Assembly (NCBI GenBank): GCA_963693055.1
Contig: OY843751.1
Coordinates: 3,840,001-3,904,000 of the forward strand
Source: a bacterium
GTDB taxonomy: Bacteria > Zhuqueibacterota > Zhuqueibacteria > Residuimicrobiales > Krinioviventaceae
DNA length: 64,000 bases
Direction of reading: 5' to 3'
The notes under the pieces are model-generated. The model did not search any database, had not been told where the DNA came from, and saw only the letters and a list, made by a program, of their open reading frames with translations. Position 1 is the first letter of the stretch. Every line of letters begins with the position of its first letter. Positions 1,423-4,069 of the stretch are shown in pieces. The position numbers were made by a program, and so were the translations under genes.

Positions 1423-2099
1423 ATGGAAAAAGTGAATTCAATATTATATCTTTGGGCTATTTGATAACCGTGCTTTTAGCTGACTCCCGGCCACTGATAA
1501 CTGATAACTTGAACCGGCCCTTTTGACACGCCAGTCCATCTTCCGGCCGCCAGGCTCCCCTACTCCATTCCTAACCACAAAAATAACAATAAAGCTTGGT
1601 AGCTTTTTTTATTTATCGTCCTATAGCATAGTTAGCTATCTGAATTGTAGCGATTATCCTGAAAAGCATTTATTTTTTCACTCTCTGGATATATTTTATT
1701 TTATACTTTGATTTTTACGAGTGTTGTTTACACAATGCCACAAAAGAGATAAAAAAAGGACACTATCTCGATAGAAATCCAATTCTACAATGTTCCTAAA
1801 ATTATTATTGATATAGTATTAAAACAGGGTTCTTTGACTATATTTGGTTTTTCGATGAAGTGCCGGAGCTTTGAGTGCAAAATTTTAGTATATCCATTAT
1901 CAAAACACATAGAGAATAGATATTGAATGGTGCTTATTCTGAAATTATCACTTTTTTATTCAGGAATAAAAAGTGTTATAAATAAAACCCGGTGTCTTAA
2001 CAATACATATTAGCTTTTTTTATACTCTCAAATTGTATAAATAAGTATATATTTAGTCAAAAGTGCAGATAATCGTATATAGGATCAAATATTTGAAAA

Positions 2100-2336
2100 T
2101 TAAAGAGATGCAGCTTTGGAATAAAATGTTACATTTCGAATATATTTGATCTCAATAGGAATATCCTGATAGTATTCATCAATCTGCGGATCTTTTTGAT
2201 ATGACGGATCCACATATACAACCAGAATAGGTTTACCAGCCTCGTTCCGGGATATACTTATCCCCTTGAAAAAACTATATTTTTCTAATTTATCTCTCAA
2301 GTGAACTTTGGCGGTGTTAATTTTAGTCATTTTCAT
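2100..2336 (-). CDS. Small hypothetical protein resembling the N-terminal domain of the adjacent protease
   Basis: Start overlaps the protease stop; IEIKYIRNV resembles VNIKILRNI of the protease N-domain. Confidence 0.65.
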   Translation of the reverse strand: MKMTKINTAKVHLRDKLEKYSFFKGISISRNEAGKPILVVYVDPSYQKDPQIDEYYQDIPIEIKYIRNVTFYSKAASL

Positions 2337-3438
2337 ACCATTTATAGGTTATGTTCGGATCATTTATTACGTTCTTTAATGTGTAACATAAACTTATTGG
2401 TTTATATTCACTTCCTTCAAAACCGGCTGTTTCTGCACCTGCAAATACTATACCGATAGCATAAAATTCACTATTATTTCGGTAAAAAACCAGACTACCA
2501 GAATCTCCAGCTTTGGAAAACGGTTCGTCAACTTTAATAGAATATACTTCAAAAATATCATTAAAGGAAAAGGTTTTTGTTTTATCATTTATATTATCCA
2601 TTTCAATTTTAATACCATCCATTGATGCTGATTTAACAGCCCCACGTGAATGACCAGTAGTTCTACCAAACTTTTCTACTTCTGTACCAATAACTACTGC
2701 TTCAGTATTGGGAGGATGGATATATTGCCCCTTAAAATCACCTTCAGGTATAACATTTCCTTTTATACGTATCTTACTTTTAAGCTTAGCAAAAGCTGCA
2801 TCATATTGCTTTGCATTTTCAGTACTCAAATGGTAATATTTTTCCAGATACCCAATAATATTATCCGAAGTACAACTGCTGTCAACACTGCCGGGATGAA
2901 ATATAGGATCACCTTCTTCTGCCGTATTGCACAATGCGAGAACGTGATTACAACTCAGTATCAATTTATTCTGGTTGTCAGGATCTATAAAAAAAGCGCC
3001 TAAAGTTCCGCTTCCGCCGTTACTATGCCCTATAGACAGTCCTATGGATAACGTCTTATTTTTCGTGCAAAACGGAGGATACCCGGTAAAGTTGTAATTT
3101 GATTGGCTTTTTGCAAGTTTCTCACATTCAGCAGGGCTGTCTGGTATTTTAATATTTCTTAATATTTTGATATTTACATCATCTTTTAATGTATCACGAA
3201 TTCTACAAGCCAATTCTGCTGCTTTACCGTTTTTTGATTTAACGCGTAATTCAAGCGAATAGTTTCCTGCTTTCTTTTTGGCATAGCCTACAGCTAACAT
3301 CCTTTGTGTAGAGTCTCTATAATCTTTAAAAAAATTTTGAAATTTTGGTTCAAGCTGTTTTACCTGATGAATTCCATTTAAATTTTTAATAATTTCTGAT
3401 TTAAGCAGTCTTACTTTTTCCAGTTCCAACCTTGCCAA
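2323..3438 (-). CDS. Cytoplasmic trypsin-like (S1/Nal1-type) serine protease
   Basis: GTLGAF, LSCNHVL (His), YDAAFA (Asp), GDSGS (Ser); no signal peptide; TTG start directly after AGGAAGG. Confidence 0.85.
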   Translation of the reverse strand: MARLELEKVRLLKSEIIKNLNGIHQVKQLEPKFQNFFKDYRDSTQRMLAVGYAKKKAGNYSLELRVKSKNGKAAELACRIRDTLKDDVNIKILRNIKIPDSPAECEKLAKSQSNYNFTGYPPFCTKNKTLSIGLSIGHSNGGSGTLGAFFIDPDNQNKLILSCNHVLALCNTAEEGDPIFHPGSVDSSCTSDNIIGYLEKYYHLSTENAKQYDAAFAKLKSKIRIKGNVIPEGDFKGQYIHPPNTEAVVIGTEVEKFGRTTGHSRGAVKSASMDGIKIEMDNINDKTKTFSFNDIFEVYSIKVDEPFSKAGDSGSLVFYRNNSEFYAIGIVFAGAETAGFEGSEYKPISLCYTLKNVINDPNITYKWYEND

Positions 3439-3910
3439 CCTTCCTGATTTTGTAGAATAATTGATTCAATAGCTCAAAAAATGTTGATATAATCAGAGCT
3501 ATAAAACTAAATAAAATCCGGTATTCATTGGATTCAAAAAAGGGGGCTCCATTTATTGCCAAACCCCATACTGCAAAAGCCAGGGTTGCAGCAAAAAGTT
3601 CCCACCAAGGGAAAACGGTACCCTCTGTTTTTTCAATTTTATACACAATAAGAACAAACAAAGGTGTACATGCTAAACAAAACCAATATATAATTGGCGC
3701 AAACAAAGGTATCTGACTCTTTAAGATGGGAATAAGAGACAAACCGGTTATATAAATTGTTATCGATTCAGTCGGTACATATTTTGTTAATGTGCCCAAA
3801 TCAATTTGGGGATTATTATTACTACCTGTTGTTGATTGAGCTCTATATCTGCTTGATGTTTTCTTACTACTTTCCCGCACCAAAGCGTATAAACTCATAA
3901 AACATCTCAT
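3401..3910 (-). CDS. Hypothetical ~4-TM membrane protein
   Basis: Polar N-terminal tail, then LTKYVPTE and four hydrophobic segments; overlaps the protease start; alternative start 3898. Confidence 0.75.
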   Translation of the reverse strand: MRCFMSLYALVRESSKKTSSRYRAQSTTGSNNNPQIDLGTLTKYVPTESITIYITGLSLIPILKSQIPLFAPIIYWFCLACTPLFVLIVYKIEKTEGTVFPWWELFAATLAFAVWGLAINGAPFFESNEYRILFSFIALIISTFFELLNQLFYKIRKVGKVGTGKSKTA

Positions 3911-4069
3911 TTTAATTGTTATTTGGAATAATTTATTAATATAACAATGAATTCAATAAAATCAAGATAATTGTGGTAAAAAATCTCAAAATAACTCAAT
4001 TTTGTTCTCATTATACACCCCAAACACAAAATGACAACCTTTTTTGCAAAACCTACTGGAAAATTCTCC

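Follow-up and report, generated by a model that had tools for sequence, protein, structure and literature searches.

In bacterial gasdermin systems, the pore former is beta-rich and carries an inhibitory peptide at its C-terminus, a short stretch that a protease removes. Gasdermin is one of the protease-linked modules named in the accessible part of PMC12642450, the others being MBL, alpha/beta hydrolase, Pepco, EACC1, CATASP, MPE, Csx30, CalpT and PCaspase. According to the same part of that study, EACC1 makes pores after loss of its autoinhibitory N-terminal part by cleavage, and the protease-activated MBL effector associates with proteases of the trypsin, caspase and S8 classes (PMC12642450). 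The partners named in the accessible part of PMC7159879 are Trypco1/2, alpha/beta hydrolase, SLATT and EACC1, with no 4TM (four-TM) partner among them. For rice NARROW LEAF 1 (NAL1), the accessible part of PMC12012508 describes that the domain ahead of the protease part binds ATP and provides the interface of the trimer, and that activity needs a hexamer.

In the window, i.e. the whole stretch of 64,000 nucleotides analysed here, a cassette of 1.8 kb encodes a 4TM membrane protein, a NAL1-like protease and a 78-aa protein (Table 1). We read it as a protease-gated membrane-effector module for abortive defence, with predicted cleavage, pore formation and defence, and assign this reading a probability of about 0.5. 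By analogy, the cassette is likely to work like an EACC1- or gasdermin-type module; it belongs to no named family and is without the sensor fusion that is usual in such modules. With EACC1-caspase and Pepco (Trypco)-trypsin, as presented in the accessible parts of PMC12642450 and PMC7159879, it shares a small, here putatively, membrane-acting protein encoded beside a protease, and the 4TM family further shares with EACC1/Pepco the use of several protease classes as partners and the occurrence in EAD and MoxR-vWA contexts. The pairing of the 4TM family with trypsin, caspase and S8 proteases is the pattern described for the MBL effector in the accessible part of PMC12642450. However, EACC1 is a single-TM alpha+beta domain and Pepco a beta-barrel, whereas the window protein gives a four-helix model and has no Pfam match, for which reason it was rejected as an EACC1 or Pepco (Trypco1/2) protein. 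Unlike in the EACC1/Pepco modules, the window protease is not fused to STAND or another sensor; in place of such a fusion, it has a separate small protein as its partner. Indeed, Pfam, PADLOC and NCBIfam revealed no STAND, EAD, SAVED or similar sensor domain in the three window proteins, and EAD1 fusions occur only in cyanobacterial relatives.

The logic that is proposed to be shared with bacterial gasdermin (listed in the accessible part of PMC12642450) is the activation of a pore former by a dedicated protease. In contrast to gasdermin, the window 4TM model is all-helical and its conserved extra element is N-terminal; the all-helical model (core pLDDT ~90) and the absence of a Pfam or PADLOC match led us to reject the 4TM protein as a bacterial gasdermin. 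Trypco's slot by the trypsin in the MoxR-vWA ternary systems (PMC7159879, accessible part) is taken in 6 cyanobacterial loci by the second 4TM subfamily (see below), whereas the window cassette is without an EAD, MoxR or vWA gene. With rice NAL1 (PF25819 Nal1_C, PF25608 NAL1_N), to which it is about 15% identical, the window protease has in common an alpha/beta domain followed by a chymotrypsin-fold domain with an H-D-S triad and a cytoplasmic location. For NAL1, an additional N-terminal region on which the active hexamer depends and ATP bound in the ABD are described, and the accessible part of the study contains no description of a stand-alone copy of the NAL1 N-terminal domain (PMC12012508). 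The terms 'Nal1' and '4TM' are absent from the main text of PMC12642450, and '4TM' is absent from the main texts of PMC7159879 and PMC8195603, whose source-data supplements may list the 4TM family. A literature search, which included few subscription papers, returned no description of the 4TM family or of the trio.

The cassette and its gene products

An earlier note on this DNA had reported three overlapping minus-strand genes. All of them were found where it had placed them, with two starts corrected: the 4TM gene most likely starts at the ATG at 3898, since the first residues encoded from there fit the conserved N-terminus of the family, and the protease gene most likely at the TTG at 3429, because an AGGAAGG lies 9 nt upstream and homologues start at the same alignment column. 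With these starts, the 4TM and protease genes overlap by 29 bp and the protease and small genes by 14 bp. The AT-richness noticed earlier is real, the GC content of the cassette being 34.1% compared to 39.4% genome-wide (6.5 Mb), but it is mild, falling within the lowest 7.9% of same-size windows of the genome; the GC3 of the protease gene is 0.228 versus 0.364 +/- 0.076. A promoter scan gave 15 sites versus 13.3 expected.

Table 1 Positions of the cassette, its genes and selected elements in the window.
Feature	Position	Strand	Basis or remark
4TM membrane protein, 165 aa, putative protease-gated effector	3401..3898	-	unnamed family; ORF open from 3910
Conserved N-terminal helix of the 4TM protein, residues 1-12, putative autoinhibitory element	3863..3898	-	motif conservation; model
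Low-complexity polar linker in the 4TM protein (residues 13-33), proposed as cleavage region	3800..3862	-	variable length; coil in model
NAL1-like S1 serine protease, cytoplasmic, 368 aa	2323..3429	-	profile, fold and PHROGs matches
Catalytic His162 codon	2944..2946	-	invariant in alignment A1
Catalytic Asp210 codon	2800..2802	-	invariant in alignment A1
Catalytic Ser310 codon (GDSGS)	2500..2502	-	invariant in alignment A1
78-aa stand-alone domain, putative protease inhibitor/switch	2100..2336	-	likeness to Nal1-type N-terminal domain
Cassette extent vs same-genus genome G001	1523..4043	no strand	alignment gap

No named defence gene was seen beside the cassette; its neighbours are an FAD oxidoreductase gene on one side and a BNR-repeat protein gene on the other. 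Both flanking genes are matched (86% and 76%) in G001, a genome of the same genus that is 98% complete, where they are spaced by 175 bp as compared to 2.6 kb in the window. The local alignment stops near 1522 and restarts near 4044, and G001 has roughly 70 bp between these ends that do not align. Judged from this comparison, the cassette is accessory, and its gain in the window's lineage is the simpler reading, the direction not being fixed by two genomes alone. A search for terminal repeats or attachment sites at the cassette ends yielded only short imperfect repeats in AT-rich DNA, which were rejected as attachment sites and put down to chance. Elsewhere in the window, the segment 10500-11500 is GC-rich; ARAGORN calls a tRNA-Glu and a tRNA-His there, and tRNA-like text is repeated in nearby ORF translations.

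With its S1 chymotrypsin fold, the cytoplasmic protease is related to rice NAL1. It had been described earlier as signal-less, S1/Nal1-like and with an intact H-D-S triad, all of which is borne out: the N-terminus contains no hydrophobic or signal-like stretch (maximal 11-residue hydropathy 0.32), all 21 aligned sequences share H162, D210 and S310, and NAL1 comes out on top by profile as well as by fold. The best PDB matches of the protease profile are rice NAL1 (E 1e-15), and in a Foldseek search with the AlphaFold2 model (mean pLDDT 87) ranks 1-10 are all NAL1 (E 1.5e-14, alignments of at least 400 columns), which is also ranked above alpha-lytic protease by fold. The N-terminal alpha/beta domain spans approximately residues 1-95. 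Pfam Nal1_C matches at 20.9 bits, i.e. under its cut-off of 26.1, the trypsin match is also sub-threshold, and two PHROG families match the protease (phrog_20754, E 2.8e-22; the second, E 1e-16). In a quick tree, the proteases of the window and of locus L018 (see below) fall into one 10-row clade (SH-aLRT 99), in which gene context is known for these two only, the other eight rows being without context.

For the 4TM protein, Kyte-Doolittle analysis finds only 3 segments above 1.5. Its earlier description as a 4-TM protein with a polar tail agrees with the AlphaFold2 model (mean pLDDT 82), which contains four core helices (43-59, 66-89, 98-114 and 124-156), an N-terminal helix at 3-12 (pLDDT ~63) and a linker that is modelled as coil (pLDDT 53-54). 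A four-copy complex prediction of the core (residues 30-158) scored 0.30, compared to a mark of 0.42, which speaks neither for nor against an oligomer. The family comprises 364 representatives at E <= 0.001. Among 150 proteins listed, 130 contain the core motif and 94 of those 130 also the N-terminal motif, for which a mean of 1.9 was expected by chance in 200 shuffles. The distance between the two motifs varies from 28 to 95 residues across the family, and the linker is rich in A/P/S/G/T. A conserved terminal element on a polar tether of free length would be the build expected of a cleavable autoinhibitory arm. The acidic residue E44 in the first helix is kept in 131 of 132 members. In a quick tree, from which two long-branch rows were left out, the family splits into two subfamilies (SH-aLRT 99); the window protein sits in one of them on a long branch, and the second contains all other Nal1- and EAD1-linked members. 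Its long branch, together with an Asn at a position that is Pro in 127 of 132 members, suggests that the window 4TM protein may be drifting.

That the cassette corresponds to no named system, as the earlier note had supposed, agrees with our searches, in which PADLOC (2023 library) and NCBIfam gave 0 families for the three window proteins, and the 4TM protein in addition matched no Pfam or PHROGs family. Among 132 4TM members, no Pfam family was matched by more than 2 members, and PADLOC gave two stray matches (E > 1e-3, one member each). Foldseek with the 4TM model returned no match at E <= 0.001, and the best VIA-align Z of 7.2 was to generic helical bundles. In the ESM Atlas, the window 4TM protein was found only in unnamed clusters, with no usable named match for a relative, and no fused longer forms appeared among 7999 candidates scored, which is weak evidence. 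For a candidate kinship of the 4TM protein with plant DMP / DUF679 (PF05078), the profile gave no match to the 4TM genes of 5 genomes, remote kinship being possible.

The protease alignment matched 36 of 41 genomes, with a high score only in its own genome (422 bits; next 131). The 4TM profile detected 2 of 111 genomes of its own phylum, namely the window's own genome and G005 with a distant copy, and in six phyla 6/301, 5/301, 5/201, 4/201, 3/201 and 1/201 genomes, the 4/201 tally including the unpublished genome G873, which is counted nowhere else; Pseudomonadota lie outside this sample. Thus, the 4TM family is rare and scattered, with 1-6 genomes per 111-301 sampled. On viral contigs, 61 pattern matches to the 4TM gene were examined and 0 confirmed; no 4TM gene was found on plasmids and no protease in GenBank phages. 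Taken together with the associations set out below, the cassette is real, mobile-looking and unnamed, and each of its parts has independent conflict-type associations.

Pairings of the 4TM, protease and small genes

Homologues of the three genes do co-occur, as one further trio and as repeated 4TM-protease and protease-small pairings. The trio is found in L018, a locus of a Planctomycetota MAG, where 4TM, protease and small genes stand in the window's order amid integrase-, transposase- and head-tail-adaptor-like genes, the protease gene being split by a frameshift. In this genome, the 4TM gene and the Nal1-type protease gene are each matched once, and the two matches are adjacent. Since L018 repeats the order and its single matches adjoin, the order of the trio is beyond chance. 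The earlier proposal of the trio as a unit therefore stands as far as the same order in another phylum is concerned. It does not stand as a general rule: the core consists of protease and small gene, and the 4TM gene is mostly absent, occurring in only 2 of 95 protease-anchored loci, the window's own and L018, whose 4TM proteins come from different subfamilies.

For the 4TM gene, the comparison covered 21 loci of 20 genomes; G041, which is circular, G873 and two weak matches that lie within long ORFs were excluded. Of the 118 neighbours listed, 51 went to Pfam. The pairing of a protease with a TM protein, as suggested earlier, recurs in 9 of these 21 loci, in which an S1 protease adjoins the 4TM gene (3 Nal1-like, 6 EAD1-trypsin), but not in the window's own 4TM subfamily, in which 0 of 80 metagenome loci contain a Nal1 protease. 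The Nal1-like protease is the next same-strand gene in L203 (1.1 kb), L207 (overlapping) and L211 (2 bp), all three without a small-gene match. In the cyanobacterial loci L213-L218 (5 genomes: G715, G799, G777, G670 and G718), an EAD1-trypsin gene lies directly upstream of the 4TM gene and another EAD1 fusion, with TPR, GUN4, VMAP-C or iSTAND as the variable part, downstream of it. Among the remaining genome loci, 1 of the 21 has a divergent secreted C39-like gene and 11 have no protease neighbour; in G005, a C39-like gene lies two genes downstream of the 4TM gene (E 9e-5). The only Nal1-type match of G167, G637 and G041 is the one beside the 4TM gene, and a search of G324 and G718 for Nal1-type proteases gave no match. 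A single clade for the five Nal1-linked 4TM proteins was rejected in a quick tree (p-AU 0.006), so the pairing of 4TM and Nal1-type protease genes likely arose at least twice.

Another protease class was found near the 4TM gene in 18 of the 80 metagenome loci, a descriptive count without a background rate and with near-duplicates included (caspase 3, S8 3, CHAT or HExxH 7, C92 2, M23 2, Rce1 1); for example, L149 contains a caspase with nSTAND1 and SIR2. Among the 32 metagenome loci that extend 1.5 kb or more to either side, a protease neighbour is present in 12 and none was detected in 20, with 97 of the 142 listed neighbour representatives scanned. Many metagenome 4TM genes are orphans among metabolic genes. 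The pairings are patchy and there are two 4TM subfamilies, from which we conclude that two exchangeable modules meet in the window cassette, which is a protease-small core plus a protease-seeking 4TM gene.

Several arrangements around 4TM genes were observed in addition. L213-L218 form a conserved three-gene unit (EAD1-trypsin, 4TM, EAD1-variable), which in L217 and L218 heads a MoxR-vWA locus (MoxR plus VMAP or iSTAND/vWA genes). L211:2431-10934 is an island of a caspase, a 544-aa protein, the 4TM protein, the Nal1-like protease and a KAP NTPase; the 544-aa protein has no Pfam or PADLOC match and looks pore-former-like by eye. A 4TM gene together with a divergent CHAT-TPR gene and a small ECF-sigma-like gene, the latter judged by eye and without a Pfam match, recurs in L106, L128, L134, L138, L154, L170 and L174, and this locus continues with an unknown protein and then a HExxH protein. 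In L116, L141, L147 and L209, a conserved lipoprotein-like gene and a gene of 110-125 aa come after the 4TM gene, with a TIR gene downstream in L147. Upstream of the 4TM gene in L203 (5040-7973) lies a 977-aa helicase with weak PADLOC matches to PbeA and restriction enzymes.

The small gene recurs more often beside the protease. A gene of 72-104 aa adjoins a signal-less protease in 9 of the 95 protease-anchored loci, window included; in L018, one of the nine, it takes the form of a similar domain at the start of a 158-aa ORF. A profile rescan of all 95 loci gave no further small gene. The 78-aa window protein matches the profile of the eight other small proteins, itself left out, at 16.5 bits. 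The small-family profile matches N-terminal domains of Nal1-type proteases (E down to 6e-11), among them that of P0074, which carries NAL1_N (E 8e-4), while the match of the 78-aa protein to the N-terminus of its cognate protease is weak (profile match, probability 8.5%), and the small protein has no direct Pfam match (including NAL1_N, PF25608) and no NAL1 structure match in the PDB. On these profile matches, the small protein probably represents a stand-alone version of the domain that opens Nal1-type proteases.

The pair without a 4TM gene is present in L017, L020, L021, L022, L029, L032 and L079, and adjoins a serine integrase in L022. Both plasmid loci that were opened (2 of 20 listed), L245 and L246, hold a small gene, which lies downstream of the protease on the Rubrobacter plasmid (46 bits) and on the opposite strand from it on the Rhizobium plasmid (25 bits). 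In IMG/VR, 7 of 7 contigs with a prophage-type Nal1 protease have an overlapping 76-78-aa ORF and lie behind a repressor-like gene; the repressors are of several different kinds, CI-like by PHROGs in the one tested, and the match of the ORF to the small-family profile is weak (4.7 bits). These seven contigs make up two sequence groups and are therefore not seven independent cases; we regard the pair on them as a candidate prophage defence pair. Because the pair recurs in genomes, plasmids and prophage-like contigs, protease and small gene form the conserved core, which is usually without a 4TM gene.

Beside these pairs, the following was noted. In L245:16-3597 (Rhizobium lusitanum plasmid), the pair comes directly after radical SAM and HEXXH peptide-modification genes. 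A protease with an overlapping 76-78-aa gene behind repressor-like genes is seen in L234-L236 and L238-L244 (IMG/VR; ~4900-6400 in L238), and in L237 a further Nal1-like protease gene, truncated by the contig end, lies two genes after a CI-like repressor. Unnamed genes without Pfam or PADLOC match adjoin the pairs in L029:6851-7231, L032:4993-5616, L017:1858-2316 and L079:7131-8315; those of L029, L032 and L017 encode hydrophobic segments and may be alternative effectors. Two tandem small-protein-like domains are located at the C-terminus of proteins in L033, L052, L071 and many Acidobacteriaceae loci among L019-L094; these are large, secreted-looking Nal1-type proteases.

Such pairs could also be explained differently, namely as a toxin-antitoxin-like defence pair that needs no further component: the protease would itself be the effector, cutting a protein of the host or the phage, and the 4TM protein would be an optional addition that acts ahead of the protease, e.g. 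as a sensor or an anchor in the membrane, and forms no pore. We consider this somewhat unlikely. It would account for the pair lacking a 4TM gene in seven loci, on two plasmids and on 7 prophage-like contigs behind a repressor-like gene, and the near-invariant E44 suits sensing or transport as well as a pore. However, 4TM genes are likewise paired with genes for EAD1-trypsin, caspase and S8 proteases lacking a small partner, and a small-gene match is also missing from the combinations of 4TM and Nal1 protease genes in L203, L207 and L211; these pairings therefore point to a 4TM-protease link in its own right.

Proposed mechanism and further readings

For the protease-gated effector, we infer four steps, i.e. 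inhibition by the small protein, a phage trigger, linker cleavage and membrane damage. The small protein would keep the NAL1-like protease inactive by occupying its N-domain interface, as suggested by its resemblance to the NAL1 domain at the trimer interface and by the dependence of NAL1 activity on assembly. Upon loss or displacement of the small protein, likely on phage infection, the protease would be freed and would cut the polar linker of the 4TM protein. This cut would remove the likely autoinhibitory N-terminal helix, upon which the helical core could damage the inner membrane. Since the cassette has no sensor domain, the trigger is the weakest step of this mechanism. The repeated trio, the two repeated pairings, the helix-linker-core build and the associations with conflict loci speak for the gated-effector reading, while 0 of 80 loci with a Nal1 protease, the many orphans, the frameshift in L018, the possibly drifting 4TM protein and the non-defence flanks stand against it.

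If the gated-effector reading is true, an all-helical four-TM family joins the short list of protease-activated death effectors and Nal1-type proteases join the known defence proteases. It would further mean regulation without a sensor fusion, through a separately encoded copy of the domain that opens the protease itself, explain the unassigned gene in the cyanobacterial EAD1-trypsin conflict loci and place NAL1, the yield protease of rice, in a bacterial context. A bolder combination, which we advance only tentatively, is that the 4TM family is an undescribed pore effector that is activated by proteases and widely shared, that it has been recruited time and again by Nal1, EAD1-trypsin, caspase and subtilase proteases, that the orphans act as bait for proteases of phages or for distant ones of the host, and that the signal-less Nal1 protease with its own N-domain copy is a sensor-less, prophage-borne guard switch, plant NAL1 being a domesticated relative of a bacterial immune protease.

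Also unlikely is regulated proteolysis outside defence, in which the protease and its small partner would process peptides or regulators in stress or development and the 4TM protein would be a substrate or relay. This would fit the L245 pair behind peptide-modification genes, the group of 4TM genes beside the CHAT-TPR gene and the ECF-sigma-like gene, and the many orphans among metabolic genes, as well as the control of transcription factors through proteolysis by rice NAL1 (PMC12012508, accessible part). The patchy distribution, the empty site in the sister genome and the place behind prophage repressors argue against it, as do the 4TM genes in EAD1/MoxR-vWA loci, which are predicted conflict systems in the accessible part of PMC7159879, and L211 with its additional caspase and KAP NTPase genes. 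That the trio is an incidental or decaying assembly without joint function would agree with the long branch and lost near-invariant proline of the window 4TM protein, the L018 frameshift and the different subfamilies of the two 4TM proteins, but is very improbable given that all three window ORFs are intact and overlapping, that the order is the same in another phylum and that the single-copy 4TM and protease genes are adjacent in G041, G167 and G637.

The window's own genome encodes a second Nal1-type protease of 235 aa (L001:7520-8227; genome 891519-892226), which is without a 4TM or small partner and lies upstream of a histidine kinase and a response regulator; in several relatives, genes like it stand ahead of a kinase-like membrane gene.
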